Shown piece by piece: positions 23,666 to 52,037 of a stretch of DNA of 64,000 bases. Numbering within the stretch: the stretch's first letter is position 1; the number at the start of each line of letters is the position of its first letter. The translations under genes and the position numbers were made by a program. This DNA comes from a virus: the IMG/VR virus record IMGVR_UViG_3300045988_096244; one strand, written 5' to 3'. The notes beneath the pieces are model-generated. The model did not search any database. It saw only the letters and a list, made by a program, of their open reading frames with translations, and had not been told where the DNA came from.

Positions 23666-24193
23666 ATGAAACTCAATAGCAATATCAAAGGTTTTCCTTT
23701 ATACCATGTCACTAAATATGGAAAGGTATATAATATAAAGCGCAGTCGTGAAGTAACCATACATCCACACTATCGTACCGGTAGAAATATAGTTCATCTG
23801 TACTCTAATGGGAAAAGGTATAATCTGAAAGTATACAGGTTAGTAGCCGAGGCCTATATACCTAATCCGGAAAATAAGCCCTGTGTATGTCATAAGGATA
23901 ACGACAAGTCTAACGATGGAGTAGAGAATTTATACTGGGGTACGTACAAAGAGAATTCTCAGCAGATGGTTAGAGAGGGTAGAAGTACAAAGGGCCAACA
24001 CCGCAAAGGTATTAAACAACCGAGATGTTTCAGAAATCCTCGTTCAGTACTCACTAAAGTTAGATATCAGACTTTATTAAAATGTATAGGTGATAAGACT
24101 AAACTAAAAGCTTTAGTTAAAGCTTGGGGTATATCAACACGCAGTATGAATAGATATGTACATAAAATAAAGACTGGGTATTATGAAGCTTAA
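23666..24193 (+). CDS. HNH homing endonuclease (NUMOD4 + HNH_3 + C-terminal HTH), intact copy
   Basis: GFPLYHVTKYGKVYN..YRLVAEAYIPNPENKPCVCHKDNDKSNDGVENLYWGTYKENSQQM; inserted between helicase-region genes and the primase. Confidence 0.8.
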   Translation: MKLNSNIKGFPLYHVTKYGKVYNIKRSREVTIHPHYRTGRNIVHLYSNGKRYNLKVYRLVAEAYIPNPENKPCVCHKDNDKSNDGVENLYWGTYKENSQQMVREGRSTKGQHRKGIKQPRCFRNPRSVLTKVRYQTLLKCIGDKTKLKALVKAWGISTRSMNRYVHKIKTGYYEA

Positions 24194-28132: not shown

Positions 28133-28534
28133 ATGGCGAAGAAAAAGAAAGACAAATTTAATGAAGTAAGGGGAGAACTTGAGACCGGAGATATCCTGGA
28201 ACCTATGGACATCACCAAATTAGGTTCAGGTAATGACCCTTGCTTCGGTAAGCATTACGACCTTTCAACCAAGGAATGTAAGATGTGCGGGGATTCAGAA
28301 CTCTGTTGCATTAAGTTCACAGCTCTCATGGGTAAAACCCGTAAGGAGTTGGAAGCAGAGACTCAGTTCAAGGATTTGGAACCTCTCATAGATATGGAAG
28401 GTTGTAAAAAGTATTATCGTAAACTGGTAAGGGAAAAACTCGGTAAGAAGGAAATACTCGATAAGCTTCAGAGTAAGTTCGAGTTATCCCGTAAGGAAGC
28501 AAGAGACTTATATCGTAAATTTAACAGTAAATAA
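28133..28534 (+). CDS. hypothetical Cys-rich, Lys-rich protein
   Basis: CFGKHYDLSTKECKMCGDSELCC cluster; 133 aa. Confidence 0.5.
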   Translation: MAKKKKDKFNEVRGELETGDILEPMDITKLGSGNDPCFGKHYDLSTKECKMCGDSELCCIKFTALMGKTRKELEAETQFKDLEPLIDMEGCKKYYRKLVREKLGKKEILDKLQSKFELSRKEARDLYRKFNSK

Positions 28535-28535
28535 C

Positions 28536-29111
28536 ATGGTTCAATTAGAGTTTACAAAGATTCGAGAGGTTAAATCCCCTAACCGAGCAAATGACGGGGA
28601 TGCCGGATTGGATTTCTACATCCCTCAGTTATCTGACCAAGATATTCTTAAGGTTGGAGAGAAAGGTGAAAATGACTTTTCTGGTATCAATCGGAAGATG
28701 TTTGGTAAAGGTTACATCAAACTGAAAGCATTGGGTACTGAAGATGTATATGTAGCAATTAAACCAGGTGGAAGACTTCTCATTCCTTCTGGTATAAAGG
28801 TACTTATCAATCCAAAAGAGTCCATGCTCATGGCAGCAAATAAATCCGGGATTGCAACCAAAGAGGGTTTATCATTTACTGCCGAGATAGTGGATAGTCC
28901 ATATACTGGTGAAATGCACATCGGTATTCATAACGGTTCCCCCGAAGAGGTTTATATTCCTCTGAACCAAAACAAGAAGATAATGCAGTTTATACATGTA
29001 CCAATTATACTTTCAAACCCGGTAGAGATTACCAATGAAGAGTATGACGAGAAAGCCAAGAATTGGGGAACTCGAGGGGATAAGGGATTCGGTGCTCACG
29101 ATAATAAGTAA
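28536..29111 (+). CDS. dut: trimeric dUTPase-family enzyme (dUTPase/dCTPase type)
   Basis: All five motifs are recognisable: DAGLDF, NKSG, IVDSPYTGEM, KIMQFIHV, RGDKGFGAHD. Confidence 0.8.
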   Translation: MVQLEFTKIREVKSPNRANDGDAGLDFYIPQLSDQDILKVGEKGENDFSGINRKMFGKGYIKLKALGTEDVYVAIKPGGRLLIPSGIKVLINPKESMLMAANKSGIATKEGLSFTAEIVDSPYTGEMHIGIHNGSPEEVYIPLNQNKKIMQFIHVPIILSNPVEITNEEYDEKAKNWGTRGDKGFGAHDNK

Positions 29112-29116
29112 AAACC

Positions 29117-30022
29117 ATGGATAGCAGAGACATTAAAGAAGAACCAAAAAACATAGAGGGTAACAAATATCTCGAGGAGATATACTCTATGCAAAAGAAC
29201 CTCTTATCTGGTTATATGGGTATAGAGGGACTACCACAGTATCCCATAGATATCAATACAAAAGCTTCTCAAACCTTACTCAAGGACTTCACTGCACGGG
29301 TAATAGAGGAGTTATCAGAGGGATACGAATCTTTTCAAGCAGTGGATGGTATCATGCAGGACAGTCACCACAAGATTATGGCCGGTGATGACCTGGTATA
29401 CATTGAACTGCTTAATCACCTTCAGAATGCCAATGAGGAAAATGCCGATGCAGTACATTTCTTCGTTGAGTTGCTGATATATGCTAACATTCAACCCGAT
29501 GATATCAAGGCATACATGGTGAAGTGGGTAAGGGATAACAAATGCGAACAGAGTACGGTAGATTACTTTAACTCTATACGGAATGATATCCTAAATACTG
29601 CTCAATCCCTTGGAGTGAAGTGGTTGATGAATGAGAGAGATATAGAGGTAATCTTTGACAGCAACTCAACCAACTTATTGAAGTGGTATGAAGAGAAAGA
29701 CTCTGAAACTTTCCCTGAGTACAATGATAAGTTACTGAAAGGTGGTCATAAGTATAACCACGAAAACTATGCTCTTCAATATCCCTACATATTGTGGAAG
29801 ATAACTCACCACCTTAATATAGCCAGGAATTTCCTGAAGAACAAACCTTGGAAACAATCTCAGGTAATGACTCAGGAGTTAAAGTATCAGGCTGAGTTGG
29901 TGAAGGCTTTCATATACTTCTGTGGTTATCTTGGATGGATAGGAATGGATTCTAAGGAAGTGTTCTATATTTACTTCAAGAAAAATCACATAAACCTGTT
30001 CCGCCAAAAATCTAAGTATTAG
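29117..30022 (+). CDS. all-alpha NTP pyrophosphohydrolase (dimeric dUTPase / MazG-like)
   Basis: KDFTARVIEELSEGYESF and EENADAVHFFVELLIYANI resemble the dUTPase_2/MazG metal-binding helices. Confidence 0.55.
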   Translation: MDSRDIKEEPKNIEGNKYLEEIYSMQKNLLSGYMGIEGLPQYPIDINTKASQTLLKDFTARVIEELSEGYESFQAVDGIMQDSHHKIMAGDDLVYIELLNHLQNANEENADAVHFFVELLIYANIQPDDIKAYMVKWVRDNKCEQSTVDYFNSIRNDILNTAQSLGVKWLMNERDIEVIFDSNSTNLLKWYEEKDSETFPEYNDKLLKGGHKYNHENYALQYPYILWKITHHLNIARNFLKNKPWKQSQVMTQELKYQAELVKAFIYFCGYLGWIGMDSKEVFYIYFKKNHINLFRQKSKY

Positions 30023-30023
30023 T

Positions 30024-31013
30024 ATGAATCTTATAAAAACTAAGAGCCCAATAGAGGCTTGGGAGAAGATACTCGAAAACTTCTTAATCAAGAAGACCGA
30101 GTGGTTCTGTGAAGGAGTTGGTTACAATCTAACCGACTCTCTATTCACTTATGACTTAATGGTAGAGATAGTAGAAGCTAAGTTCGACCCAAACTTCGAC
30201 TTCGGTAAGATGTTTGGGTACACCATGACAAAGTGGACAGGTTTAATTACCAACTACTTGGATTTGGATGTACTTGACCAAGCTAAGTTGATGATAAGGA
30301 AGTTAGAAGAGAATAAGACCGTAAACAGGAATTATCACATAGGCTTCCATTTTGCCGATAATCACGGCAGCGGTAAGGGATGTTTGGTGGGCGGTATATT
30401 CTCTCGTAAGATAGGGATTGAAAATCCCGAGATAACCGTGATACTTCGCTCATCAGAGGTGGTTACACGATTGCCAATAGATATTCTCCTATTCTGTCGT
30501 ATGGGACAGTATATCTACGGTCATGATAACTTCTCGCTAAAATTAGTTATCAAGGCTGCTTGGGCAAATGATACTACAATCTTGTTGTATCAGAACCGAA
30601 AAGATATCAAGGAGTTCTTGAAAGAGAACTGTGATGATGAAGCTCGTAGAAAAAAGATACGTAAGTCTCTCAAGAAACTAATGACAAGTGATGAAGCTGT
30701 TTATAAAACATACGGTAACAGTTTCAGAGCTTTCAAAGTATTAAGGAAAGACTTGGGATATAATCAGAAGTCCATGTTGGCATCATCTTTAGAGATTGGT
30801 GATTGGGATGGTATTCCTTTACCAGAAGTATGCCCATCTATACTTAAGCGAAACATGATAAAGAAGACATACTTAAAGTTCACTGAAAAGTACGGACTTA
30901 AGTTAAAGCTTGAAGAAAGTGGGGAAAGGAAAAAGAAGAAACTAATCTCGTTCTCCTCATCAGACGAAGATGATATGGATGATAATGAATCAACTGTAGA
31001 ATCAGATGAGTAG
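30024..31013 (+). CDS. divergent thymidylate-synthase-fold-like protein, paralogue A, with acidic C-terminal tail
   Basis: DPNFDFGKMFGYTMTKW..LDQAKLMIRKL..GSGKGCLVGG..ITVILRSSEVVTRLPIDILLFCRMGQYI parallels the TS core by eye (DQ.., PC.., QRS.D.., PFN..); tail SSSDEDDMDDNESTVESDE. Confidence 0.4.
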   Translation: MNLIKTKSPIEAWEKILENFLIKKTEWFCEGVGYNLTDSLFTYDLMVEIVEAKFDPNFDFGKMFGYTMTKWTGLITNYLDLDVLDQAKLMIRKLEENKTVNRNYHIGFHFADNHGSGKGCLVGGIFSRKIGIENPEITVILRSSEVVTRLPIDILLFCRMGQYIYGHDNFSLKLVIKAAWANDTTILLYQNRKDIKEFLKENCDDEARRKKIRKSLKKLMTSDEAVYKTYGNSFRAFKVLRKDLGYNQKSMLASSLEIGDWDGIPLPEVCPSILKRNMIKKTYLKFTEKYGLKLKLEESGERKKKKLISFSSSDEDDMDDNESTVESDE

Positions 31014-31794
31014 AGTAAAGGTAAAGAATAACCTGTTAATGTTCAAGAACAGCATGAAAGCTTGGGAAGGACTTAACAGGTTATTCCTGTTCAATACGCT
31101 TGGTTTGGACATAGAAAGAATTGGTAAAGCTCAATACATAAATGATTTAGTCATTAGTATTAAAGAACCTCTGGTAGACCCCGAATTTGATTTTGGTAGG
31201 CATTTCAATTATACCATGTCAAAGTGGAAGTCATTAGTGGCTAACTATGTTGATGAGAATAGTCTTTCATTACTGAGGCTGGATGTTATAGAGGCTATCA
31301 ACAATAGAAAGATATTCAACATAGGCTATCAGTTTAATAATAAACATGCCCACGGAAAGAATTGCCTATTATCCATGACTGTATCTAAAAAAGTGGGTAT
31401 GGATAACCCCATGATAACAGTATTCATGAGGGCATCCGAGGTTACTAAAAGGCTGATATGTGACCTACTCCTTATTCAACGTATGGGAGAATATATATTC
31501 GGATATGGGCAGAAGTTTCATGTATCAATACATTTCAGTCAGATATTCAATGATGATACTGTACTTCTTATGTACCATGCCCATGAAGACTTACTTAAGT
31601 TGAGTGATAAGCTTGGTATATACGACGGTAATTGGTATGACCGATTGAAGTATCTGCTTGAGGTGGACCCTGACAAAATAAAATATAAGGTACATAAAAG
31701 GGCAATAAAAGTATTAAGACCTGAGCTTTTCAAATATCCTAAGACCTTAGCTAAAGACTGTACTCTTGGGAGTGAAGACTGGCTACCGTTCTAA
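31006..31794 (+). CDS. divergent thymidylate-synthase-fold-like protein, paralogue B
   Basis: Clear paralogue of 30024..31013: DPEFDFGRHFNYTMSKW, HGKNCLL, ITVFMRASEVTKRLICDLLLIQRMGEYI. Confidence 0.4.
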   Translation: MSRVKVKNNLLMFKNSMKAWEGLNRLFLFNTLGLDIERIGKAQYINDLVISIKEPLVDPEFDFGRHFNYTMSKWKSLVANYVDENSLSLLRLDVIEAINNRKIFNIGYQFNNKHAHGKNCLLSMTVSKKVGMDNPMITVFMRASEVTKRLICDLLLIQRMGEYIFGYGQKFHVSIHFSQIFNDDTVLLMYHAHEDLLKLSDKLGIYDGNWYDRLKYLLEVDPDKIKYKVHKRAIKVLRPELFKYPKTLAKDCTLGSEDWLPF

Positions 31795-31830
31795 TATAGG
31801 GAAGTCTATTGAATTGCAAATACCAATGCA

Positions 31831-32010
31831 ATGAATATAGAAGTAAAGAAATCCCCCTATACAAGTAAGCTTGGTGGAGATATTGATATTACCTTTTCTA
31901 CTGATAGCGGATGGTTGTTCAATACTGTAGTCAATATAAGTAGGAAGGATTTAAGACAACTCAAAAGAAAGATAAGGAGGTATCTCCATGAAACAATAGA
32001 AGAAAAGTAA
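31831..32010 (+). CDS. small hypothetical protein (59 aa), paralogue 1 of a tandem pair
   Basis: MNIEVKKSPYTSKLGGDIDITFSTDSGWLFNTVVNISRKDLRQLKRKIRRYLHETIEEK; just under the ORF-track cutoff. Confidence 0.45.
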   Translation: MNIEVKKSPYTSKLGGDIDITFSTDSGWLFNTVVNISRKDLRQLKRKIRRYLHETIEEK

Positions 32011-32188
32011 TCCATACTTTGGTGTAGAAATATCCAGGAGCGAGTATAAAAATAGGTATGATAGAGATATTGAATTATCTATATCTACTAACGGTCATCA
32101 CTGGATAGGATTGCCAAATATGAATATCCAGGACCTGAAAGAACTACGAAAATCTATAAGAAAATATATTAAAGAAAACAAACAATGA
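31988..32188 (+). pseudogene. paralogue 2 of the tandem pair, with in-frame TAG at codon 4
   Basis: atg aaa caa TAG(31997-31999) aag aaa agt aat cca.. gives MKQ*KKSNPYFGVEIS..ELSISTNGHHWIGLPNMNIQDLKELRKSIRKYIKENKQ*; no alternative start after the TAG. Confidence 0.4.
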
Positions 32189-32955
32189 GAATATATTCGA
32201 ACCCCTATGAGTTAATGTCAGAGACGGCAAGAAACTTATGGGAAATGGGTAATGAGGTAAAACCCCGTACCTATCAAAACAAGGTAATAGAAGGCAATGA
32301 TGACTTCATTACAAAGGAACTCATCTGTGAGCAGTACTGTTTAACTCACATGGAAGACCCAGCTGCACTTTTTGTATTCACTAAGTCCAAAGATTGGGCA
32401 GAGGCAGAATTCGAAGAGAGAGTATGCGGTAGGATGGAAAATCCAGGTAAAGCATGGGAACTCCGTAAAAACGTTTGGGAAGAGTTTTTAGTTGATGGGT
32501 TCTTTGACTATACCTATGCAGAACGTATGAACGAGTCAGTGTTATACAAAGGTAAGGCATTCTCAAAACTCGAAGCAGTAATAGAATTGTTAAGGAATGA
32601 CAATGATACAAGAAAAGCCATATTAAATATATATGGTGAAGTCGGTTACCATGAGGACTGCGATTCAAACTATCTCGGTGGAGAAAAGAGAATACCGTGC
32701 TCCATGTATTACGACTTCCTCATCCGAGAGAATGCCCGAGGAGAAAAGCAACTCAATATATGTTATCACCAAAGGTCTTCTGATTTTGTAACCCACTTCG
32801 GTAATGATGTTTACCTGGCATGGAGACTCATGGAATATGTAGCTAGCGAGGTGGGAATCAAGCCTGGATATCTCTATCATACTATTGATAGTTTGCATAG
32901 TTATAAAAAAGACTGGGTGAAACTGAAGACCTCAATCCAAACCGAATTGAGATAA
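32185..32955 (+). CDS. thymidylate synthase (ThyA)-family enzyme, divergent
   Basis: RKAILNIYG.., catalytic-Cys context IPCSMYYDF, ICYHQRSSDFVTHFGNDVYLA.., TIDSLHSY parallel the ThyA motifs RR..saWNp / PCh..qF / yQRS.D..G.PFN / gd.HiY. Confidence 0.65.
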   Translation: MRIYSNPYELMSETARNLWEMGNEVKPRTYQNKVIEGNDDFITKELICEQYCLTHMEDPAALFVFTKSKDWAEAEFEERVCGRMENPGKAWELRKNVWEEFLVDGFFDYTYAERMNESVLYKGKAFSKLEAVIELLRNDNDTRKAILNIYGEVGYHEDCDSNYLGGEKRIPCSMYYDFLIRENARGEKQLNICYHQRSSDFVTHFGNDVYLAWRLMEYVASEVGIKPGYLYHTIDSLHSYKKDWVKLKTSIQTELR

Positions 32956-32960
32956 CCTCA

Positions 32961-33036
32961 GAAGGTAACGGTATAATTGGAGGGGATTGTTCTTTTCTGT
33001 AACCTTGAGATTAGTAGTAAAGTTACCGTTACCTTC
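32961..33036. repeat. perfect 13-bp inverted repeat (long hairpin) just upstream of tRNA-Met
   Basis: gaaggtaacggta 32961-32973 and taccgttaccttc 33024-33036, 50-nt spacer. Confidence 0.6.
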
Positions 33037-33040
33037 ACTC

Positions 33041-33114
<74 letters not shown>

Positions 33115-33164
33115 CAAGATGAATCTTTACTTTGCGCTGTGGACCGCGAGTCCTGATTCACCCC

Positions 33165-33206
33165 GGGTATCAGACTGTAGGGATATAGACTGATACCCAT
33201 TTTTAT
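33165..33206 (+). terminator. terminator-like hairpin plus T-tract ending at the 5' end of tRNA-Pro
   Basis: gggtatcag 33165-33173 / ctgataccc 33190-33198, then atttttat. Confidence 0.4.
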
Positions 33207-33281
33207 ACGGAAGTAGCACAGTCCGGTTAGTGTACTTGCTTTGGGAGCAAGGGGTCGCAGGTTCGAATCCTGTCTTCCGTA
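33207..33281 (+). tRNA. tRNA-Pro (anticodon TGG)
   Basis: Acceptor acggaag/cttccgt, anticodon arm cttgc-ttTGGga-gcaag, T arm gcagg-ttcgaat-cctgt. Confidence 0.85.
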
Positions 33282-33393
33282 CAAGGGCTATATGCTGGGT
33301 CATAACCGGAGATACGACCTCCAGCTAGCAATGGGCAATAACCCGGTACGAGATACCAAAAGCTCATAATTAAAGTCGAAGGCTATAGCTCTA

Positions 33394-33430
33394 GGAGATG
33401 AGCGAAGAACAGTACCTCATCTCCCCTTTT
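33394..33430 (+). terminator. terminator-like hairpin plus T-tract just upstream of tRNA-Leu
   Basis: ggagatgag 33394-33402 / ctcatctcc 33416-33424, then ccttttg. Confidence 0.4.
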
Positions 33431-33436
33431 GTAAAG

Positions 33437-33519
33437 GCTCGGATGGAGAAATAGGTAAACTCATCAGATTTAAGCTCTGACGGTCATTGACCTTGCGGGT
33501 TCGATTCCCGCTCCGAGTA
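33437..33519 (+). tRNA. tRNA-Leu (anticodon TAA), class II with long variable arm
   Basis: Acceptor gctcgga/tccgagt, anticodon arm tcaga-ttTAAgc-tctga, variable arm ggtc-att-gacc, T arm gcggg-ttcgatt-cccgc. Confidence 0.85.
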
Positions 33520-33534
33520 CAAAATACCCTTAAC

Positions 33535-33870
33535 ATGACAATCACATTCAAAGATTACCCTTGCGGTACAATTTCATTAGGTACTTCAGTAACAATAATA
33601 CCTAATTCATATCAGATTAAATCAATCCAGGATATGGAAGATATAATCAACCGTTCTAGAGAAGAAGTAAATAAAAGTCCAGTATTCCATACGTTTGCAA
33701 TAAATAAAAGAACTACAGCTGGTATGATTATTGAATGGCGAGCCCATAATATGCTATATGCACTGCATATAAAAAGGAATAGGACTCGAACGGTTGACCT
33801 GGATATAAATGAACCATGGTACCGTAAAGTAGGATATTTAATATTATCAACACTATATCTAAGATGGTAG
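33535..33870 (+). CDS. hypothetical protein (111 aa)
   Basis: Start moved to ATG 33535 (MTITFKDYPCG..) because the track start 33487 lies inside tRNA-Leu. Confidence 0.5.
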   Translation: MTITFKDYPCGTISLGTSVTIIPNSYQIKSIQDMEDIINRSREEVNKSPVFHTFAINKRTTAGMIIEWRAHNMLYALHIKRNRTRTVDLDINEPWYRKVGYLILSTLYLRW

Positions 33871-34472
33871 AAATTACAAACGTAGATGTGTATGACTTAG
33901 AGAAGTCAATTATAGCATGTAGAAATGCTATGCGTACAGAACCAGTATTCCCAGTAGACATGGATGCTTGGGGACATCCAATTTATGAACAGAAAGAATG
34001 GGATGATTCATTTAAGAGGGCCGTTAACTTGGCCAAATCCCCATCTAACAGTGGTCACCCTAATTTCTTAACCGGAATAAGGGTATCATTTGACATCCTA
34101 TACCCAAACTACTTTTCACCCGAGTTACAACGATATCATTGGATAGATATTGTAACCTCATCTTCAAAGATGCACAGGCTCGGTGAGATTGTAAAGAAGG
34201 AGTCATTCAATAAGTATGTAACCCCGGAGGTAATAGCTATAGTTCAGGACTTGGCAAATAAGTTCATAGAAGACCCAAGCTATGAGAATCGTATCAAGCT
34301 GCTGAGTAATTGCCCTCTCGGGATAGAATTATTCATGAGGGTAAGTACCAACTATATGCAACTCCGGAATATATACCATCAGAGGAAAGATCATCGTCTG
34401 AGAGAGGATTGGGGAGCATTCTGTAAGATGATTCAAGAGTTACCCTTCTTCGAAGAGTTCATAAACAAATAA
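33864..34472 (+). CDS. ThyX-fold (flavin-dependent thymidylate-synthase-like) protein lacking the canonical RHR motif
   Basis: GHPNFLTGIRVSFDILYPNYFSPELQRYHWIDIVTSSSKMHR and NYMQLRNIYHQRKDHRLREDWGAFCKMI parallel ThyX blocks (H.s.lEH..F.i...SR...hql.RHR....qS.RY; l..l.hf..lR....Aq.Eir). Confidence 0.45.
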   Translation: MVEITNVDVYDLEKSIIACRNAMRTEPVFPVDMDAWGHPIYEQKEWDDSFKRAVNLAKSPSNSGHPNFLTGIRVSFDILYPNYFSPELQRYHWIDIVTSSSKMHRLGEIVKKESFNKYVTPEVIAIVQDLANKFIEDPSYENRIKLLSNCPLGIELFMRVSTNYMQLRNIYHQRKDHRLREDWGAFCKMIQELPFFEEFINK

Positions 34473-34844: not shown

Positions 34845-36413
34845 ATGGAGTCAAGATATGCTATACTAAAGAGTTTCTCACAAGTCAAGCGGCTTGTGAA
34901 AGCTTGTTTAAGAACTGGCCTAGCTTCCGTCGACTTCGAGACAAATGCTGAAGGTATCTATAACAAATCTTTCAAACCAACCATCCTATCAGTAACTTTT
35001 CAGGTAGGTTCTGGTGTATCAATCCCTTTATGTCATCATGAATATAACAACCCTCATTGGAAACGTTGGTTAAAGTATTTTGGTAGGCATGTGATTGAAA
35101 ATCCTAAAATAACTAAAGTAGGATGGAATCTGAAGTTTGACCTTCAGATATTCGAGTTATTTGGGATATATGTTAGAGGTACTGTTCTGGACGGAATGCT
35201 TATGAAGTATCTCCTAAATGAGGAGAAACCTAATGACCTGAAATCAATGGTTAGAAGGTATCTACCAGAACACGGAGATTACGAAAAGTCGGATAAGTTT
35301 GATAAGATACCATGGGACAAGAAACCATTGGAACCCTTATGCAAATACGGTTGCCAGGATACGGATTATACCTTAAGATTATCTATGTTCTTTGAGAGCA
35401 AGTTAATTGAGATAGGTATGTATCCATTATTTAGGCATTTGATAATGCCAGCATCCAGGGTACTCCAACATGCAGAGAAAACTGGGTTATACCTTGATAG
35501 GGAATTCAATCAGGAATTGCTTAAATCCTACAAGCCAAAGATTGACCAAGCAACTGCTAATTGCTTGAATCTTCCCAGAGTAAAGAAATTCTCTAGATGG
35601 CTTACCGAACAGAGAATAAGCAAATACCTGGAGTCCATAGAAAGTGAACTTGAAGATATGGATTATAGAGACCCTGCAAATAAGAGGAAGATAGCAAGTA
35701 GGGAACAAAAGATATCCAATATCAGGGCTGGAGTATTTACAACTAAGAAAGAACTTGAATTAACTCGAGAAGTAAACTTGGGCAGTCCTATTGATTTACC
35801 TTTATTATTGTACTCTAAAAAGGGATTCAACTTCCCGGTTATCAAGTATACTAAGGATAAGAAAACAAATAGGGATACTGATAAACCCAGTACCGATGAA
35901 GACACATTGGTAGAACTTCGGTTAACGGTTAAAGACCCTGAAAGTCCCAAAGCAATCTTCCTGGATAATCTTCTCGAGTTGAGAGGGTTAAAGAAAATGT
36001 ATACAACCTATATTGAGGGATGGCATGATAAAGTTCAGGATGATGACAGGATTCACGGGCAATTCAAAATCATTGGTACTACTTCTGGCCGTTTAAGTTG
36101 CATAAGTGGAGATACTAAAGTATTAACCCAGTATGGAGAAATACCCATTATAGATATTAAAGATTGGATTGGTGAAGGGTTGTGTGCCATGACTAAAGAG
36201 GGGTGGCAATTAATAGAAAACTTCATATATAAGGGTGTTAATGATATGTATGAAGTAACACTTGAGGATGGTACTTCTATTCAATGTACTTTAGACCATA
36301 AGTTTATAACCAATCAGGGGACTAAAAGATTAGGGGAAATTTACAATAAATACCGAAATACTATTGATTCTAAAGTTAAACTTTTAAGATATGTCCCAGA
36401 CCACGAACAATAG
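34845..36413 (+). CDS. polA: DNA polymerase I (family A), N-terminal part (3'-5' exonuclease and first half of the pol domain) fused to an N-terminal split-intein fragment
   Basis: ExoI motif SVDFETN; ..HGQFKIIGTTSGRLS then CISGDTKVLT..TLDHKF.. (intein blocks A/B), stop after 104 intein residues. Confidence 0.85.
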   Translation: MESRYAILKSFSQVKRLVKACLRTGLASVDFETNAEGIYNKSFKPTILSVTFQVGSGVSIPLCHHEYNNPHWKRWLKYFGRHVIENPKITKVGWNLKFDLQIFELFGIYVRGTVLDGMLMKYLLNEEKPNDLKSMVRRYLPEHGDYEKSDKFDKIPWDKKPLEPLCKYGCQDTDYTLRLSMFFESKLIEIGMYPLFRHLIMPASRVLQHAEKTGLYLDREFNQELLKSYKPKIDQATANCLNLPRVKKFSRWLTEQRISKYLESIESELEDMDYRDPANKRKIASREQKISNIRAGVFTTKKELELTREVNLGSPIDLPLLLYSKKGFNFPVIKYTKDKKTNRDTDKPSTDEDTLVELRLTVKDPESPKAIFLDNLLELRGLKKMYTTYIEGWHDKVQDDDRIHGQFKIIGTTSGRLSCISGDTKVLTQYGEIPIIDIKDWIGEGLCAMTKEGWQLIENFIYKGVNDMYEVTLEDGTSIQCTLDHKFITNQGTKRLGEIYNKYRNTIDSKVKLLRYVPDHEQ

Positions 36414-37445
36414 GCAAAAGGTATTTGAAGATAAATCTACTAGGGGTCCAAGGAGAAAATTAAAGCTAATAATAGAGGATGGTAAAAGGTATATAAAGAA
36501 AGAAGATCTTTTACATTACTTCTTTCAAGAGAATTGGAATATAGAAGACTTCAATTATCATTTTGGTATTGGCCATAGAATAGTGAGAGGTTCTCTATAT
36601 AAATGGTTTACTAGAGAGGAGATAGAGGAATCCCATAGAAAGAAGATTGCTAATAAACAAAGGGGTAGTAACAATTCTAATAGGGTTAATTGGTATAAGC
36701 CTCGTAAGCTTATACCTTTATTGGATTTAGAGGAAGCTATTAAAAAATCTACTTGTAAACGGGATTTGAAAGAAAGATTACAATTAACTACTTGGGAATT
36801 GTCTTCTATACAGCAATTCTATAATTTTAAGCTCCCTAATAAATCTTCTTTACTCAATACTAAACTCCAGTATTCTCTTTCTAAAGAAGATGTAAAACTC
36901 TTATGTAAAGTTATTACAGGAATGCAATTGGAAGACCTATTTTTCTCTAATACTCCTCAAGCTATCTACAAAATAGATTGTCTTGTTTGGGAACTTAAGA
37001 AGATTAACCGCTCTCTTAGAAGAGCTTTTAGGAAACCTATAGTAGCTCAGGGTATTAAGTTTTCTACTAATTTGATAGAATATAAATTCCACAAAGCTTT
37101 AGAAAAAATGGGTATAGAACATGAAATACAGTATTACATACCCGAACATAATATACACCTAGACTTTTTAATACAAGGTCACTACAACTTAGAATTAGAT
37201 GGAAATTTACATGAAAAAGAAGCAGATATGGATAGAGACTATGTTCTCAAATCCCTTGGCTATAAAGTTATACGATTAGATTTAAAAACCCTTGGTATCA
37301 CTAGATTTTCAAAAGAAAAGGAGGTAAGAAAATGTATAAAGAAGTTGGTATTACCCAAGTTAAATTCGTAGGTAGAAATGGGGTATATGATTTATCAGTT
37401 ATGAACTGTCATCAATTTGTGGCTAATAATATCTTAAATCACAAT
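36099..37445 (+). mobile_element. split intein (IntN 36099-36410, IntC 37332-37445) with an embedded free-standing homing endonuclease gene
   Basis: Cys1 codon tgc 36099-36101; IntC ends ..NNILHN, then Ser+1 at 37446. Removing it restores TTSGRLS-SSEPNLQQIP. Confidence 0.8.
36391..37371 (+). CDS. free-standing homing endonuclease, Vsr/DUF559-like PD-(D/E)XK C-terminal domain
   Basis: Different frame from both pol halves and overlaps both; very AT-rich; EHEIQYYIPEHNIHLDFLIQGHYNLELDGNLHEKEADMDRDYVLKSLGYKVIRL. Confidence 0.7.
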   Translation: MSQTTNNRQKVFEDKSTRGPRRKLKLIIEDGKRYIKKEDLLHYFFQENWNIEDFNYHFGIGHRIVRGSLYKWFTREEIEESHRKKIANKQRGSNNSNRVNWYKPRKLIPLLDLEEAIKKSTCKRDLKERLQLTTWELSSIQQFYNFKLPNKSSLLNTKLQYSLSKEDVKLLCKVITGMQLEDLFFSNTPQAIYKIDCLVWELKKINRSLRRAFRKPIVAQGIKFSTNLIEYKFHKALEKMGIEHEIQYYIPEHNIHLDFLIQGHYNLELDGNLHEKEADMDRDYVLKSLGYKVIRLDLKTLGITRFSKEKEVRKCIKKLVLPKLNS

Positions 37446-38480
37446 TCTAGTGAACCTAACCTTCAGCAAATACCTAAAACCTCCGTAGATGCTAACATAA
37501 AGAAACAGTTAGTAGCTCCTAAAGGAAAGTTATATATGGCACTTGACTACTCTCAGGCAGAGTTAAGAATCATGGCTCACCTTTCCGGGGATGAAACTTA
37601 TCTCGAGGCTTTTGCAAAGGGTCAGGACCCTCACCTTGCTATTGCAGCAAAGAAGTATGGTGTATCGTACGATGAAGCAAACCAAGCTTATAGTGACGAG
37701 CAACATCCAGATTACAAGGTTTGGAAGAACAGGAGAAAGCAGGCAAAGCAGATATGTTTTGGTATTATCTATGGTATTCAAAAGAAACTACTTGCAGTTA
37801 AACTGTCTGACCCAAAAGCGGGTATCATTGTAACACCCGATGAAGCTCAACAGCAATTGAATGAGTTCTTCCAGGAACACCCCAAGATTAAGAAGTTCAT
37901 GATTAACCAGGAGAAGGTACTGATTGAGCATGGATATATTAAATCTCTGTTTGGTAGGAAGAGAAGGTTACCACAAGTATATTCTGACAATGAGCAAGAG
38001 GCAGCATACGCAGTAAGATTATCAGTTAACATGCCATGTCAATCAGCTGCATCTGATATGACTCTGTTTGCATCCATACTCAATTATTGGAAAATACGAC
38101 AAGGTATACTTCCACCACTGCTTGAAACCTGTACAGTACATGATGCCGTTTATTACTTGGCAGACCCTGAGTATATAAATATATTCACGGTGTACAATAT
38201 ATGGGAGACTTGCCGTAACCCAAGTACAAAAGAGTATTTCAAATTTGAAATCAACGATGTAGATATGTCAATGGACTTTACTATCGGACGTTCGATGGCT
38301 GAGGAGTTGCCATATATACCTGGATATGACTATAGAAAAATGCTTCAACCCGATTTTAATGTGGAGAAGTATTTGGAAGAACACCGTAAGTGGAAAGACT
38401 TATCCATCAAGGAGTTCCCCAAGAAGTTCCCCGAATACTTTAAGAAGGATTACTCATGGAGAAAGGAAAAGGTGGTATAG
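37332..38480 (+). CDS. polA: C-terminal split-intein fragment fused to the DNA polymerase I C-terminal part (motifs A, B, C)
   Basis: MYKEVGITQVKF..VYDLSV..HQFVANNILNHN|SSEPNLQQIP; LDYSQAELRIMAH (A), RRKQAKQICFGIIYG (B), TVHDAV (C). Confidence 0.85.
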   Translation: MYKEVGITQVKFVGRNGVYDLSVMNCHQFVANNILNHNSSEPNLQQIPKTSVDANIKKQLVAPKGKLYMALDYSQAELRIMAHLSGDETYLEAFAKGQDPHLAIAAKKYGVSYDEANQAYSDEQHPDYKVWKNRRKQAKQICFGIIYGIQKKLLAVKLSDPKAGIIVTPDEAQQQLNEFFQEHPKIKKFMINQEKVLIEHGYIKSLFGRKRRLPQVYSDNEQEAAYAVRLSVNMPCQSAASDMTLFASILNYWKIRQGILPPLLETCTVHDAVYYLADPEYINIFTVYNIWETCRNPSTKEYFKFEINDVDMSMDFTIGRSMAEELPYIPGYDYRKMLQPDFNVEKYLEEHRKWKDLSIKEFPKKFPEYFKKDYSWRKEKVV

Positions 38481-38917: not shown

Positions 38918-39441
38918 CCATCCCTATTTAATAGGGTATCATATTTCTAATGTAGGTAAAATATACAGTAGAGTAAAGGGTTATTGGAGAGAATTAACTC
39001 CTCGTATCAATAGAGAGGGATATCTTAGGATAAAATTAAATGGTAAGCAATACTCAATACATAAATTAGTTGCTGAAGCTTATATACCTAATTCGGAAAA
39101 TAAGCCCCTGTGTATGTCATAAGGATAACAATAAGCTAAACAATTCGGTTGATAACTTGTATTGGGGAACACAAAAGGAGAACTTAGAACAAATGATTAA
39201 AGACGGTAGGAGTTTGAAAGGTAGAAGAAACCCTATGTGGAAAAATCATTATAATTCTGGTTATGGTAGATATGGAGAAAAAGCAACAGCTAGTAAACTA
39301 TCAAACAAAGATAGAATAAGTATAGTTAAAAGTCTAAACTCGGGTATAAGTATAGATACTTTATCCAAAAGATACAAAGTATCAAGAGCCTGTATTAGAA
39401 GTCAAATAAGAATAGTGTCAAACTTACGTAAACAACAATAA
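38901..39441 (+). pseudogene. HNH homing endonuclease (NUMOD4/HNH_3/HTH) disrupted by a +1 frameshift in a C-run
   Basis: ORFs 38901..39122 and 39070..39441 are the two halves. aagCCCCtgtgtatgtcataaggataac (C4 at 39105-39108) versus aagCCCtgtgtatgtcataaggataac in the intact copy near 23875. Confidence 0.75.
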
Positions 39442-39443: not shown

Positions 39444-39818
39444 ATGTCAAAAGTAGAATTAAACCTTATCTCGGTAGAAGAAGCAAGGTATTTGAACAGT
39501 AAACTTGAGGGATATGGAACACCCACGGGAGGCAGGGTACTGATAGTATCACCGATTGTAACGGCTGATACAAAAACTAAAGGTGGACTCTATATCCCTC
39601 AGGAACACGATAAAGAAACCGTTCCCCGTAAAGGAGTAGTGATTCAAATGAGTTACATGACTCCCGAACAGGAAATAGATTATCCAGGTCTTCAGGTAGG
39701 TGCTGTGGTTACATACGGATTATATGCCGGCAAAGAGCTAGACGTAGTAGACCTTCCTAACCAGGTAACAACTATATTATCTCTGAATGAGATACTTTAC
39801 ATAGAAACCAATAAATAA
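39444..39818 (+). CDS. GroES-like co-chaperonin (Cpn10 fold)
   Basis: GRVLIVSPIVTADTKTKGGLYIPQ....RKGVVIQMS....LQVGAVVTYGLYAGKEL......ILSLNEILYIE follows the Cpn10 pattern. Confidence 0.65.
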   Translation: MSKVELNLISVEEARYLNSKLEGYGTPTGGRVLIVSPIVTADTKTKGGLYIPQEHDKETVPRKGVVIQMSYMTPEQEIDYPGLQVGAVVTYGLYAGKELDVVDLPNQVTTILSLNEILYIETNK

Positions 39819-41884: not shown

Positions 41885-42784
41885 ATGCTTATGGTAGTGG
41901 ACGGGAGTAACCTTGCTCACCGTTCATACCATAAGTTTAAGAATCTTAAAGCTAATAACGGAGCTGGTACCGGATTAGTATATGGATTCTTAAGAATACT
42001 CGGTTCATACCTTGTAAGGTTTAAACCAAGTCACGTGGTAATAACATTTGACACTCAGAAGAGTAAAGAGTCTAACTTCCGTAATGAATTACTTGAAGGT
42101 TACAAAGCTCACCGGAGTAAGATAAGTATGGATTATGAAGACTTCAATAAACAGTTAGCTCTGTTGAGAAGGATTTTAAGACTACTCGGGGTTCAGATGA
42201 TTCTAGATAAGAAAGGGTTAGGACATGAATCAGATGACTACATTGCCTGGCTGGCTATAAACCATCCTGGTAAATCTCTCATAATATCTTCAGATAAGGA
42301 CTTCTGTCAATTACTTGACAAACGAGTGAAGATATTCAATCCCAACAAAGAGACACTAATCCACAATCAAACCTGCAAGGAGATTATGGGTTATTCTGCT
42401 GAGGAATGCGTTGATTACCTAATACTTAACGGAGATAAGTCTGATGATATCCCGGGTTACTACGGTATGGGTGAAGTGAAGACCAAAGCTTTCCTGAACC
42501 AATTCGGGAGTATAGCTGACTTCATAGATGCAAGAGGAGCAGAGTTTAAGGGCATAGAAAGGGACCAGCTAGAAGAGTTATATAAGAAGAACAAGCCTCT
42601 TATAGATTTGAAAGCTGCTTTAACTCTATACCCGATAAAGAAAGTCCCTTGGGTAAAAGGATGTACTAATAATATAAGGAAAGATAGGTTATTCATGGTC
42701 CTCGATAAGTTCAATCTGAGGTCATTCAAGATACCTGACTTTTTGGAACCTTTCAAAAAACTACAAACGTATGTACAACGGTAA
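41885..42784 (+). CDS. 5'-3' exonuclease / flap endonuclease (T4 RNase H / PolI N-domain family)
   Basis: MLMVVDGSNLAHRSYH, VVITFD, YKAHR, IISSDKDFCQLL, GDKSDDIPGYYGMGEVKTKAFL; start moved to ATG 41885 after the recA stop. Confidence 0.8.
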   Translation: MLMVVDGSNLAHRSYHKFKNLKANNGAGTGLVYGFLRILGSYLVRFKPSHVVITFDTQKSKESNFRNELLEGYKAHRSKISMDYEDFNKQLALLRRILRLLGVQMILDKKGLGHESDDYIAWLAINHPGKSLIISSDKDFCQLLDKRVKIFNPNKETLIHNQTCKEIMGYSAEECVDYLILNGDKSDDIPGYYGMGEVKTKAFLNQFGSIADFIDARGAEFKGIERDQLEELYKKNKPLIDLKAALTLYPIKKVPWVKGCTNNIRKDRLFMVLDKFNLRSFKIPDFLEPFKKLQTYVQR

Positions 42785-43430
42785 ATATCAAATTATGTTT
42801 ACAGGTGTTTCCGGAGTAGGGAAAACAACCATTGCAAAGGAAGTATCGGAAATGTTGAAGATACCCTTTATATCTGGTTCATACTCTGACCTGGTACCAG
42901 AAACAAAAGACATGCCCCACGCTGACATGATTCAGCAGGATGCAAAGACAGTATTCATGCAGGATATGCAGGTACTCAATCTTCGTAACAAAGCCTTTCG
43001 AGGGGAGGATAACTTTGTAACTGACAGGTCATACTTTGACTCTGCAGCATACTTCATCAATAAGTTATCTCATAGGTTGGCAGAGTGTGACCTGGACCAT
43101 GCTATAGACTTATGCAAAATGCTACTTGGTCAACAGTGTACTCACTTGATATTCATACCATTCTCCTCAAGCTTTTTCAAGGACTGGGTAACCGAGGATA
43201 ACGGGAAACGAGTACTGTCAAAGTACTATCAGTTCCAAGTTTCTCAGGTTATGTATGGATTACTTGACCTGTGGGGGTACAAGCCAGATTCCAAAGTAAT
43301 GCAAGTCGTGGATGGAATACCAAGTACTGGTACTCTGGAAATAATGGGTTACAAGGTAAAGGTTCTCATATTAGATGAGATGAACTACGAAAAGAGAAAG
43401 CATCTAATAAGGAAATTTCTTCAGTTATGA
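42771..43430 (+). CDS. P-loop kinase (dNMP / nucleoside-kinase-like)
   Basis: IMFTGVSGVGKTTIAKEV Walker A near the N-terminus; 219 aa, kinase-sized. Confidence 0.45.
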   Translation: MYNGKYQIMFTGVSGVGKTTIAKEVSEMLKIPFISGSYSDLVPETKDMPHADMIQQDAKTVFMQDMQVLNLRNKAFRGEDNFVTDRSYFDSAAYFINKLSHRLAECDLDHAIDLCKMLLGQQCTHLIFIPFSSSFFKDWVTEDNGKRVLSKYYQFQVSQVMYGLLDLWGYKPDSKVMQVVDGIPSTGTLEIMGYKVKVLILDEMNYEKRKHLIRKFLQL

Positions 43431-44743
43431 AGGTAGATAAGGTGGATAATATTAAAGACTTCCCGGGATATTATATTTCTCGGGAAGGTTTTTTATATAG
43501 TAGGTATGATAAGGTAGGCCGTTTAACAGACACTTATAAGAGAAATAAGACATATGTAAGGTCTAACGGTTATGTACAAGTGGTATTGAAAATACGAAAG
43601 GAGAATAGATTACGTAGAGTATATATACATAGGTTAGTAGCTGAAACTTATATCCCTAATCCATATAATAATCCCTGTGTAGGACATAGGGATAATAATA
43701 GAGAGAATAACTCTGTAGAGAACCTATATTGGTGTACTCATAAGGAGAATACTCAACAGTGTATAGATGACGGTCGTATGAACTTTAGGCCTAAACTACA
43801 ATTCTTATTATTTTCAGACTTACACATATCAGACTATAAGAAGTTTCCAAGTAGAGAGCATAGTGGATTTAGAGTATTGGATATTATATCTCAACGATGT
43901 GAAAAGCTTGGAGTACCCGCAGTACATGTGGGTGATTTGATACATAGACCTGAGGTTATAAGCAATGAGTTATTGTACAGGTTAATAAAAGAGTTTAATC
44001 AATTATCTCATCGTAAGTGGAAATTATATTCTATATCGGGTAATCATTGTATAAGTACTCGTAGTGAAATAGGCCATAAACCAATTTCATGGGATAGAAC
44101 TTTATCTATGATATACCCATGGTTTAAGTGTATAGATTACAAAAGAGTTCATGTAGATAAATGTTATATATATGGAATACCTTATATAGACCATAATATA
44201 GGTTTATCTAAATACATATCAGAACTAAAGCTTACTGGCAGTAAAAGAAGTAAACACATACTCCTATTACATACTGACTATCCTGGGGCAAAGGATACGG
44301 ACGGTACAGTAGTAAACAGTGTAGAGAACCTGAATATAAATTCTATATCAAAGTTTGACTTAACTCTTTGTGGGCATATACACAAACCCCAGAGGTTAGG
44401 TAAGAAGGTGTATATGGTAGGTTCACCATATCAACAACGTAGAACTGATAAGAATTGTGAATTGGGCTACTGGGAAGTATACTCAGATATGTCACTTAAA
44501 TTTATACCGTTAAATGATTTTCCTAAATTTGTGGATGTATCATCAGAGGATGAAATTAAAGATGACGGCAATTATTATACTGTTGTTGCTAGCAAGTCTC
44601 GGGTTGTGGCGGTGGAAGATACCCCGCAAATAACTCGGGAACTTACTAAGAAATCCATGGTACGCAGATATATGAAAGCCAAAGGCATAAAAGACAAAGA
44701 AAAGAAGGCCACATTATTAAAGGTAATAAAGGAGGCAGAATGA
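43427..44743 (+). CDS. sbcD: HNH endonuclease domain fused in frame to an SbcD/Mre11 (gp47-like) nuclease
   Basis: aa 1-117 are NUMOD4/HNH (FPGYYISREGFLYS..HRLVAETYIPNPYNNPCVGHRDNNRENNSVENLYWCTHKEN). From M118 (ATG 43778): MNFRPKLQFLLFSDLHISDY, HVGDLIH, SGNHC, LLLHTD, CGHIH phosphoesterase motifs. Confidence 0.75.
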   Translation: MKVDKVDNIKDFPGYYISREGFLYSRYDKVGRLTDTYKRNKTYVRSNGYVQVVLKIRKENRLRRVYIHRLVAETYIPNPYNNPCVGHRDNNRENNSVENLYWCTHKENTQQCIDDGRMNFRPKLQFLLFSDLHISDYKKFPSREHSGFRVLDIISQRCEKLGVPAVHVGDLIHRPEVISNELLYRLIKEFNQLSHRKWKLYSISGNHCISTRSEIGHKPISWDRTLSMIYPWFKCIDYKRVHVDKCYIYGIPYIDHNIGLSKYISELKLTGSKRSKHILLLHTDYPGAKDTDGTVVNSVENLNINSISKFDLTLCGHIHKPQRLGKKVYMVGSPYQQRRTDKNCELGYWEVYSDMSLKFIPLNDFPKFVDVSSEDEIKDDGNYYTVVASKSRVVAVEDTPQITRELTKKSMVRRYMKAKGIKDKEKKATLLKVIKEAE

Positions 44744-47725: not shown

Positions 47726-47727
47726 AT

Positions 47728-48657: not shown

Positions 48658-48670
48658 AATTTTAATGCAA

Positions 48671-48712
48671 ATATTTTGCAACTTCGAGAAATTTGATTAT
48701 ATTTACATAACG
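48671..48712 (+). promoter_or_regulatory. Bacteroidota-type promoter (TTTG-N19-TATATTTA), CATAACGAAA start region
   Basis: TTTG 48675-48678; tatattta 48698-48705; 41 nt upstream of ATG 48746. Confidence 0.55.
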
Positions 48713-48745
48713 AAATAAGAAAATAAATTTTATACTTATATAAAT

Positions 48746-49312: not shown

Positions 49313-49315
49313 GGT

Positions 49316-50830: not shown

Positions 50831-50872
50831 TCAATCAAACATTTTTCAAACAACCTTTTAATTCATTAAATT

Positions 50873-51373: not shown

Positions 51374-51507
51374 GGGTCCTTCCGACTATAACAATTCCCG
51401 AGGGCTGCTATACTCTTAATTAGCTGAAGATAATACCTGGTAAAGATGGCATCAAGTTCATTCAGGTCAGCCCTCTTTTTAATCAAAAACCTTAATCAAT
51501 AAAAGAT

Positions 51508-52030: not shown

Positions 52031-52037
52031 TAGGTAT

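Follow-up and report, generated by a model that had tools for sequence, protein, structure and literature searches.

A conserved phage gene cassette that pairs a divergent thymidylate synthase homologue with a second thymidylate synthase-fold family is a candidate pathway for a C5-modified cytosine nucleotide

The hydroxymethylcytosine pathway of bacteriophage T4 comprises a dCTPase/dUTPase (gp56), a hydroxymethylase acting on deoxycytidine monophosphate (dCMP; gp42), a deoxynucleoside monophosphate (dNMP) kinase (gp1) and a dCMP deaminase (cd), of which gp56 reportedly belongs to the dimeric d(C/U)TPase family. Other characterised proteins with the thymidylate synthase (TS) fold include the flavin-dependent 5-hydroxy-dCMP synthases of the AfhB/RB69 gp48 type (9iqu, 9iqc), the cytosine-specific cytidine monophosphate (CMP) 5-hydroxymethylase MilA (5jnh, 5b6d), which uses a ribonucleotide substrate in a bacterial antibiotic pathway, and SPO1 gp29, which hydroxymethylates deoxyuridine monophosphate (dUMP). 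Residue 177 of TS homologues (numbered here as in E. coli ThyA) sets the preference for dUMP or dCMP, and Asp177 is enriched in those homologues that reside on metagenomic contigs with modified cytosine, where TS is accompanied by domains of dCMP deaminases and of MazG/HisE-type pyrophosphatases (PMC8670742). In addition, L143 correlates with a methyl rather than a hydroxymethyl product, and D169N is a mark of the 5-hydroxy-dCMP synthases (PMC13326640). Here we describe a group of nucleotide-metabolism genes in the IMG/VR virus record IMGVR_UViG_3300045988_096244, analysed as one stretch of 64,000 nucleotides (hereafter the window). The conserved core of this group, consisting of a small Cys-rich protein (orf133), a nucleoside triphosphate (NTP) pyrophosphatase (B), one or two copies of a TS-fold family (C/D) and a ThyA-superfamily protein (E), forms a tight same-strand cassette upstream of the gene for family A DNA polymerase (PolA). 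This island is most likely the nucleotide-precursor module of the replication region, feeding a C5-modified deoxycytidine nucleotide to the phage polymerase.

The window represents most of a ~78-kb human-gut myovirus genome with an A+T content of ~61%. Its closest public record is MT121964, an unannotated metagenomic sequence from human faeces named 'Phage DP SC_6_H4_2017', which shares ~80% nucleotide identity with the window and whose position 14500 aligns with window position 2. Genes for the tail sheath, tape measure and baseplate are located at 4.8-16.7 kb, and 3' of these lies a replication module encoding DnaB, primase, a superfamily 2 (SF2) helicase, PolA, a gp32-like single-stranded DNA-binding protein (SSB), a RecA/UvsX-like protein, FEN, an Mre11/Rad50-like pair and a PDDEXK nuclease. 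Six open reading frames (ORFs), termed A through F, reside between the helicase and PolA genes, all on the plus strand and at the coordinates assigned by an initial annotation made from the sequence alone (Table 1). These ORFs abut or overlap, with a gap of 1 nucleotide between B and C and an overlap of 8 nucleotides between C and D. About 60 ORFs of the window were scanned against Pfam, PHROGs or NCBIfam, and many of them are without annotation. The initial annotation had called A a trimeric dUTPase-family enzyme, B a dimeric dUTPase/MazG-like enzyme, C, D and E proteins with a TS or TS-like fold, and F a ThyX-fold protein. All six fold calls are borne out: A, B and E by Pfam or PHROG matches, and C/D and F by the Foldseek check that had been proposed, which was run against the PDB with AlphaFold2 models of D and F and returned the TS fold and the ThyX fold, respectively. 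The gene-level homologies are statistically strong and are not chance patterns.

Protein E matches the Pfam family Thymidylat_synt (PF00303) over residues 95-253 with E=1.1e-15 and 57.9 bits (cut-off 24.3). However, it scores far under the cut-offs of all NCBIfam TS equivalogs (50.9 versus 174 bits). Comparison of an E-family profile, prepared from 30 homologues, with PDB sequences yields AfhB dCMP hydroxylase as the best match (7e-10), followed by MilA (6e-6), with the best ThyA at 5e-4; T4 dCMP hydroxymethylase is not among the PDB sequence matches of this profile at E<=1e-3. A total of 1151 homologues of E were found, and most of the longer contigs among the matches listed are 70-88 kb in length.

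A residue table was prepared in E. coli ThyA numbering from a MAFFT alignment that included E and six E-like partners. The reference sequences were E. coli ThyA (identical to PDB 1aob), T4 gp42 (identical to GenBank M37159) and SPO1 gp29 (from its record). Residues of folate-dependent TS catalysis are present in E at Glu58, Tyr94, Arg126, Cys146, Arg166, Ser167, Asp169, His207 and Tyr209, and the six partners share with E the residues Glu58, Tyr94, Arg126, Cys146, Arg166, Asp169 and His207. In the numbering of E itself, C172, R197-S198-S199-D200 and H238-S-Y240 are invariant in the 30 homologues and align to E. coli Cys146, Arg166-Ser167-x-Asp169 and His207-x-Tyr209. Compared with E. coli ThyA, E carries Asp in place of Asn177, Arg (its Arg169) in place of Leu143, Ser in place of His147 and His in place of Gly173. 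Asp177, Arg143, Ser/Thr147 and His173 are found in E and all six partners (7/7). Position 177 is Asp in T4 dCMP hydroxymethylase (D179, aligned with D208 of E) and Asn in E. coli ThyA and SPO1 gp29; likewise, in hidden Markov model alignments the invariant D208 of E coincides with an Asp in both AfhB and MilA, and with the residue equivalent to Asn177 in S. aureus ThyA. Furthermore, E terminates 16 residues past Tyr240, versus 55 residues past Tyr209 in ThyA, and thus ends ~40 residues earlier.

Of the features expected of a functional thymidylate synthase, E therefore has neither Asn177, nor Leu143, nor the C-terminal segment that closes over the active site to allow hydride transfer. By its signature E does not appear to be a synthase of thymidine monophosphate (dTMP), and none of the three TS-fold proteins of the island looks dUMP-specific; the initial call of E as a clearer ThyA-family enzyme needs correction where it is read as a dTMP-making ThyA, given Asp177, Arg143 and the missing C-terminal tail. 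We consider it likely that the substrate of E is a cytosine nucleotide and not a uracil nucleotide. To judge from these alignments, E belongs to a distinct Arg143/His173/Asp177 subfamily of ThyA homologues.

The characterised enzymes resemble E to different extents. Both E and T4 gp42 have Cys, Arg-Ser-x-Asp, 'ND' and His-x-Tyr elements, and both have Asp177, but the two proteins are distant, and the acidic residue that T4-type dCMP hydroxymethylases carry at position 143 (Asp143 in gp42) is Arg in E and all E-like partners. Like E, the AfhB/RB69 gp48-type enzymes are short TS-fold proteins with Asp177 and without the ThyA C-terminus. Unlike these enzymes, E and C/D lack D169N (the corresponding residues are D200 of E and E145 of C/D), and for this reason a 5-hydroxy-dCMP synthase identity was rejected for both. 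MilA carries an Asp aligned to D208 of E, but differs in its ribonucleotide substrate, its bacterial antibiotic pathway and its Asp143; the preference of E for ribose or deoxyribose is not readable from sequence. SPO1 gp29, which aligns with E residues 5-252 at 24% identity, and ThyA share with E the catalytic Cys, Arg and His-x-Tyr, whereas both have Asn177 and ThyA additionally has Leu143 and the C-terminal lid, in place of which E has Asp, Arg and no lid.

The two proteins encoded directly upstream of E are homologous to each other (33% identity, E=9e-44). Neither C, nor D, nor a profile of the C/D family has a match among Pfam, NCBIfam or PDB sequences (the C/D profile yields only noise against the PDB), and a Pfam scan of ten distant family members revealed no bridge to PF00303. 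The AlphaFold2 model of D was built on 44 homologues and has a predicted local distance difference test (pLDDT) score of 90.6. A Foldseek search of the PDB with this model yields ten matches at E<=0.001, all of which are TS-superfamily proteins, as are nearly all of the top 50. The best match is AfhB dCMP hydroxylase of phage HY126 (9iqu, E=4e-6), which is also the best PDB sequence match of E, followed by MilA, T4 dCMP hydroxymethylase and then ThyA. Matches to TS-superfamily structures reach a probability of 1.0 for the best, with template modelling (TM) scores of 0.38-0.53. When viral models (BFVD) were searched instead, family members were recovered first (TM 0.84), and an uncharacterised protein of Pseudomonas phage PMBT14 gave a TM score of 0.68; annotated TS proteins and dCMP hydroxymethylases rank below both. 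The family is rare: a collection of 5.8 billion sequences contains 135 of its proteins, none with a Pfam domain, and a search of 1.84 billion representatives gave 251 clusters at E<=1e-3.

In a C/D family alignment that extends down to ~17% identity, the only invariant positions are K73, L77, Y81, C120, R142 and D153, with E145 near-invariant. C and D each carry C120, R142, E145 and D153, and because both retain these family residues, both look catalytically competent. The motif arrangement is Cys, then Arg-x-Ser-Glu-x7-Asp, in which the spacing of R142 (0), E145 (+3) and D153 (+11) equals the TS spacing of R166, D169 and N177. This equivalence comes from a statistically weak hhalign match between the C/D and E families (E=0.046), in which RASEVTKRLICD of D is matched to RSSDFVTHFGND of E, such that RASE...D of D aligns with RSSD...D of E. 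If this register is correct, C/D would have an Asp at the base-recognition position, as does E. C additionally carries a C-terminal extension of ~65 residues that is not found in D, and that is Lys-rich and then strongly acidic: SSSDEDDMDDNESTVESDE. This tail recalls the protein-interaction tails of SSB-type proteins, and the orthologous C-type copy on the contig designated L013 is likewise longer (351 amino acids).

The cassette recurs in other phages, with variations. Two 85-kb gut contigs (L004/L005, hereafter L004/5) carry orf133, A, B, one C/D gene, an E-like TS gene and PolA in this order, and L013 carries orf133, B, a C-type gene, a D-type gene (258 amino acids), a TS gene and PolA. The order in L012 is orf133, B, C/D, TS, dCMP deaminase and PolA, and that in L006/L007 is a short MazG-like protein, C/D, a 198-amino-acid protein without assignment, a TS-like protein, dCMP deaminase and PolA. 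Even a 2-kb contig with a very distant C/D member (L014) encodes C/D and then TS. The order is also the same in CPD4 (52.7 kb), a cultured phage of Clostridium perfringens, which encodes gp73, which is B-like (2.5e-20), gp74 of the C/D family (1.4e-21), and gp75, an E-family 'thymidylate synthase' (1.6e-58) with Asp177, followed by three small ORFs and DNA polymerase I. The same cassette is present in the cultured phages CPAS-15, CP3, Clo-PEP-1, A2 and relatives. A C/D-family gene lies directly 5' of the PF00303 gene in the window, MT121964, L004/5, L012, L013, L014 and CPD4, and the next gene after TS, or after the deaminase, is PolA in L004/5, L006, L012 and L013. The dCMP deaminase gene located directly after the TS gene in L006 and L012 is expected for a T4-like rerouting of pyrimidines. 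A promoter and terminator scan of 27.4-35 kb of the window gave counts not above the shuffled expectation and was uninformative on operon structure.

B matches Pfam dUTPase_2 (PF08761; E=2.5e-6, 28.3 bits, cut-off 22.9), mainly with residues 231-301, and PHROG 12184 'nucleotide pyrophosphohydrolase' (E=2e-19), and acidic metal-binding motifs of the forms ExxE (EELSE) and ExxD (EENAD) can be read from its sequence. Among the members of the all-alpha NTP pyrophosphatase superfamily are families of dUTPases and dCTPases with a preference for deoxynucleoside triphosphates (dNTPs) (PMC2954211), and B is a candidate dCTPase/dUTPase. Its homologues occupy the same position in MT121964, L004/5, L012, L013 and CPD4 (gp73), and in a short form in L006. 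A matches Pfam dUTPase (PF00692; E=1e-8, 35.4 bits, cut-off 22), PHROG 135 dUTPase (E=2.6e-18) and trimeric dUTPases of the PDB (E=4e-9; motif 1, DGDAGLD, and motif 5, RGDKGFG, are aligned). All five motifs are visible in alignments to M. tuberculosis dUTPase, with ~40 additional residues between motifs 1 and 2. The substrate of A is not assured, because its score with the NCBIfam model dut (57 bits) is under the equivalog cut-off of 103. A is a variable part of the cassette, being present in MT121964 and L004/5 and absent in L006, L012, L013 and CPD4. The protein encoded by orf133, with its Cys-rich stretch CFGKHYDLSTKECKMCGDSELCC, has no convincing Pfam or PHROG match. Its homologues (42-86% identity) are encoded immediately upstream of the cassette in MT121964, L004/5, L006, L012 and L013, and it may be part of the pathway.

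The P-loop kinase that the initial annotation had noted at 42771 is confirmed in the form of weak similarity to thymidylate and cytidylate kinases (Table 1). Its gene lies ~8 kb downstream of the cassette and has homologues in L004/5, L006 (a weak dNK match), L012 and L013. The protein is a candidate kinase for dNMPs, possibly modified ones.

Table 1. Coordinates and assignments of the features of the window that are discussed in the text.
Feature	Coordinates	Strand	Assignment
orf133	28133..28534	+	Small Cys-rich protein, leads the cassette
A	28536..29111	+	Trimeric dUTPase-family hydrolase
B	29117..30022	+	All-alpha NTP pyrophosphatase, dimeric dUTPase/MazG type
C	30024..31013	+	TS-fold family, 'C-type' paralogue
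C-terminal extension of C	30800-31013
D	31006..31794	+	TS-fold family, 'D-type' paralogue
E	32185..32955	+	ThyA superfamily
tRNA-Met(CAT), tRNA-Pro(TGG), tRNA-Leu(TAA)	33041..33520	+	ARAGORN; between E and F
127-amino-acid ORF	33487-33870		TTG start
F	33864..34472	+	ThyX-fold protein of a large unannotated phage family
PolA	34845..38480	+	Family A DNA polymerase; Pfam DNA_pol_A_exo1, DNA_pol_A, Intein_splicing, DUF559
First PolA ORF	34845-36413		Ends in intein N-terminal splicing region (CISGDTKVL...)
Out-of-frame ORF between PolA halves	36391-37371		DUF559/Vsr-like endonuclease domain
Second PolA ORF	37332-38480		Starts with intein C-terminal splicing region, then rest of polymerase
HNH_3 ORF	23666-24193		HNH_3 endonuclease domain
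HNH_3 ORF	39070-39441		HNH_3 endonuclease domain
Co-chaperonin	39444-39818		Cpn10/GroES-like, E=8.6e-10
P-loop kinase-like protein	42771..43430	+	Nucleoside monophosphate kinase-like; Pfam AAA_18 4e-7, Cytidylate_kin2 8e-4, PHROG 2107 'thymidylate kinase' 1e-7
HNH_3-Mre11 ORF	43427-44743		HNH_3 endonuclease domain fused to N-terminus of Mre11-like phosphoesterase
Consecutive ORFs (~20)	47015-64000	+	100-310 amino acids, no significant Pfam match
RfaH-like ORF	47015-47725		Weak NCBIfam match, E=2.5e-4
DUF7194 ORF	57053-57562		Sub-threshold match

We lean towards the view that a cytosine nucleotide modified at C5 is the product of the cassette and is incorporated into phage DNA. In such a pathway, B, together with A where present, would cleave dCTP and dUTP to monophosphates, which would both drain the canonical dCTP pool and supply substrate. 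The Cys of E would then attack C6 of dCMP, and a one-carbon unit from methylene-tetrahydrofolate would be transferred to C5. Since E has neither Leu143, which excludes water, nor the C-terminal lid, the group added would more likely be hydroxymethyl than methyl. C/D would carry out a second Cys-dependent reaction on a cytosine nucleotide, whether as a parallel reaction, as a further conversion of the product of E, or as a partner of E. Finally, the kinase encoded at 42771 and the nucleoside diphosphate kinase of the host would form the triphosphate that PolA incorporates.

The logic of this pathway is like that of T4, in that an NTP pyrophosphatase, a P-loop kinase and a TS-fold enzyme that carries Asp in place of Asn177 are all encoded, with a dCMP deaminase in relatives. 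It would also parallel the TS-homologue pathways described previously (PMC8670742, PMC13326640). The proposal that the island combines NTP pyrophosphatases, TS-fold C5 enzymes and an NMP kinase in the manner of T4 has gained strength from the Asp177 of E and every E-like partner and from the Cys and Arg-x-Ser-Glu-x7-Asp elements of C/D. Unlike in T4, a second TS-fold family is obligatorily paired with E, and no glucosyltransferase was recognised in the window scans. It is possible, though doubtful in our estimation, that C/D represents a new TS-fold branch with a chemistry undescribed for this fold, and that a hypermodified cytosine nucleotide is made before replication, in which case these gut myoviruses and the cultured CPD4-type C. 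perfringens phages would carry an uncatalogued cytosine derivative. For example, a Cys of C/D could add at C6 of the 5-hydroxymethyl-dCMP made by E, with loss of water to regenerate an exocyclic methylene that then captures a different nucleophile.

The same genes could instead serve ordinary nucleotide supply and sanitation, such that only canonical dNTPs are made, with A and B removing dUTP and with E, C/D and/or F acting as redundant or divergent dTMP synthases for an A+T-rich genome. Genes for dUTPase, TS, ThyX and kinases are common in phage replication modules, E exceeds the Pfam threshold for TS and its relatives are annotated 'thymidylate synthase' in CPD4 and by JGI, and these genomes assemble readily from standard metagenomes (one E cluster, for instance, has 1208 member sequences). 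A C5-methyltransferase-like gene in MT121964, described below, would further imply that C5 positions are unmodified. We nevertheless consider this explanation unlikely, given that Asp177 is invariant in E and its E-like partners, at a position occupied by Asn in the experimentally characterised dUMP enzymes of that alignment, and that E falls far under the equivalog cut-offs, has dCMP and CMP enzymes as its best PDB relatives and lacks the ThyA C-terminal segment. Moreover, dTMP synthesis alone would hardly call for three TS-fold genes, and the dCMP deaminase directly 3' of TS in relatives also speaks against it. The cassette might alternatively act on nucleotide pools and not on the DNA, either by making a modified cytidylate or small molecule that poisons host replication or by countering host defences that deplete or deaminate dCTP, with the product in both cases not residing in virion DNA. 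This role would suit the likeness to MilA-type CMP hydroxymethylases, which serve nucleoside-antibiotic pathways and rank near the top of both the structure and the sequence comparisons, as well as the lack of a recognised DNA-level transferase in the window, and it is compatible with the methyltransferase-like gene of MT121964. We judge it quite unlikely, since the fixed location of the cassette beside PolA in the replication module and its association with a dNMP-kinase-like gene speak for a DNA precursor, and no further small-molecule tailoring enzymes were seen.

A narrower alternative concerns C/D alone, which could be inactive or regulatory TS-fold subunits that form a heterodimer with E or a scaffold for dNTP synthesis, leaving the chemistry to E. 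TS enzymes function as obligate dimers in which active-site arginines are shared, the strict adjacency and likely translational coupling of the C/D and E-family genes favour such a role, and the acidic C-terminal tail of C would suit protein-protein contacts. Yet the few residues that are invariant across the family are exactly the catalytic-type Cys, Arg and Asp, which is unexpected for a purely structural subunit, and we regard this alternative as improbable.

Several observations weigh against our preferred interpretation, which is that the cassette supplies a C5-modified cytosine nucleotide to phage DNA. Arg143 of E fits neither the methylases (Leu) nor the hydroxymethylases (Asp/Glu), and the product of E is thus a guess. 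The residue equivalences of C/D depend on a structure match with moderate TM scores (0.42-0.53) and on the weak hhalign alignment (E=0.046), and the substrates of A, B and the kinase cannot be predicted from sequence. No glycosyl-, carbamoyl- or other transferase, radical S-adenosylmethionine enzyme or dCMP deaminase was recognised in the window by the Pfam, PHROG and NCBIfam scans; in particular, no post-replicative glucosyl-, arabinosyl- or carbamoyltransferase, such as an arabinosyltransferase alongside an AfhB/RB69 gp48-type enzyme, was recognised among the ~60 ORFs scanned, many of which are unannotated. Papers on CPD4-like phages mention neither restriction resistance nor DNA modification, and no literature was found for the record name of MT121964. 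In addition, a protein of MT121964 (4682-5677) is annotated as a DNA cytosine methyltransferase and has PSC and ENLP motifs like those of C5-methyltransferases. Such an enzyme complicates any scheme of complete C5 replacement, because it would be pointless if every cytosine were already C5-substituted. No homologue of it is found in the window, and its syntenic position lies outside the window. The suggestion of the initial annotation that a canonical pyrimidine is replaced completely is unproven and fits poorly with this gene of the closest relative.

The initial proposal of a six-enzyme unit holds insofar as all six ORFs are present, but the conserved cassette is orf133-B-C/D-E, with A variable and F a mobile accessory gene. 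F has no Pfam match (Thy1 is not matched even at E<=1), and its profile has no match among PDB sequences at E<=10, but F matches PHROG 6721 'unknown' with E=8e-37. The AlphaFold2 model of F (pLDDT 91.0) matches ThyX in Foldseek searches with E=1.6e-6 and TM scores of 0.55-0.67, with 143 matches at E<=1e-3, and its order of secondary-structure elements is that of ThyX, element by element. Although the ThyX fold is thereby supported, the RHR...S.RY signature is missing. The signature RHRx7SxRY, which in the verified T. maritima sequence is R78-H79-R80...S88-G-R90-Y91, reads R90-Y91-H92...S99-S-S101-K102-M-H104 in F. By manual comparison with T. maritima ThyX, anchored on secondary structure, F appears to retain His65 ('GH'), Arg174 ('QR') and one further Arg close to where helix 4 ends. 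These equivalences were drawn manually because an hhalign comparison of the F family with T. maritima ThyX was not significant and was mis-registered in the N-terminal half. F is thus best described, on the strength of its model, as a ThyX-fold protein but not a demonstrable ThyX; it is plausibly flavin-dependent, though its active-site motif is altered.

The distribution of F is different from that of the cassette. Its 2663 homologues are spread across diverse phage contigs, all so far phage or phage-like, and include copies in cultured phages of Fusobacterium, C. difficile and C. perfringens, all annotated 'hypothetical'. F is absent from MT121964 and from all other cassette loci examined, yet shares 69% identity with a copy on an unrelated phage contig of 166 kb (L009; ENA k119_238975, 165.7 kb, 8001-8576), and we therefore regard it as a mobile accessory gene. 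A role for F in the conserved pathway was rejected on account of its absence from the closest relative and every other cassette locus. The copy in L009 lies beside genes for PolA, a thioredoxin-like protein and a dNMP kinase of the DNMK type, and no TS-fold protein is encoded within 8 kb of it, a context that suggests that F works alone. In the window, F has been inserted between E and PolA together with three transfer RNA (tRNA) genes. In L004/5, only 50 base pairs separate TS and PolA and no gene is called there; the tRNAs are outside the conserved cassette. The 127-amino-acid ORF that overlaps tRNA-Leu has no Pfam or PHROG homologues and, should it be a true gene, probably starts further downstream. 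The F family, with its ThyX fold and without the ThyX motif, is a separate question.

Other replication genes of the window also carry insertions. PolA is split in two halves by an intein, with an endonuclease ORF between the halves, whereas in relatives it is a single uninterrupted ORF of 727-762 amino acids. Three HNH_3 endonuclease domains are encoded in the replication module, one of which is fused to the N-terminus of an Mre11-like phosphoesterase; this protein has 438 amino acids, versus 323-332 in relatives, which suggests a homing-endonuclease insertion. In L013, a RecA/UvsX-like gene (14541-16751) is interrupted by an intein that contains a LAGLIDADG endonuclease. It seems that inteins and homing endonucleases move freely among the replication genes of this phage group. 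A gene for a Cpn10/GroES-like co-chaperonin lies between PolA and the gp32-like SSB gene and is conserved in relatives. For the consecutive ORFs at the 3' end of the window, seven were scanned against PHROGs without a match, and the RfaH-like and DUF7194 matches (Table 1) were the only ones in 47-64 kb. Stop-codon recoding was rejected as a cause of their lack of annotation, because reassignment of TAG or TGA yields no ORF fusions.

What appears to be new here is a candidate module for the modification of pyrimidines before replication, in which a distinct ThyA subfamily is obligatorily linked to a TS-fold family without matches among Pfam, NCBIfam or PDB sequences. Modified phage bases decide which restriction and CRISPR (clustered regularly interspaced short palindromic repeats) defences a phage escapes and which sequencing and cloning methods are workable, and they have been a source of widely used enzymes. 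Because the cassette is present in cultured phages, the prediction is directly testable by nucleoside mass spectrometry. If it is true, an abundant group of human-gut myoviruses, together with veterinary C. perfringens phages that have been proposed for therapy, would join the phages with modified cytosine.

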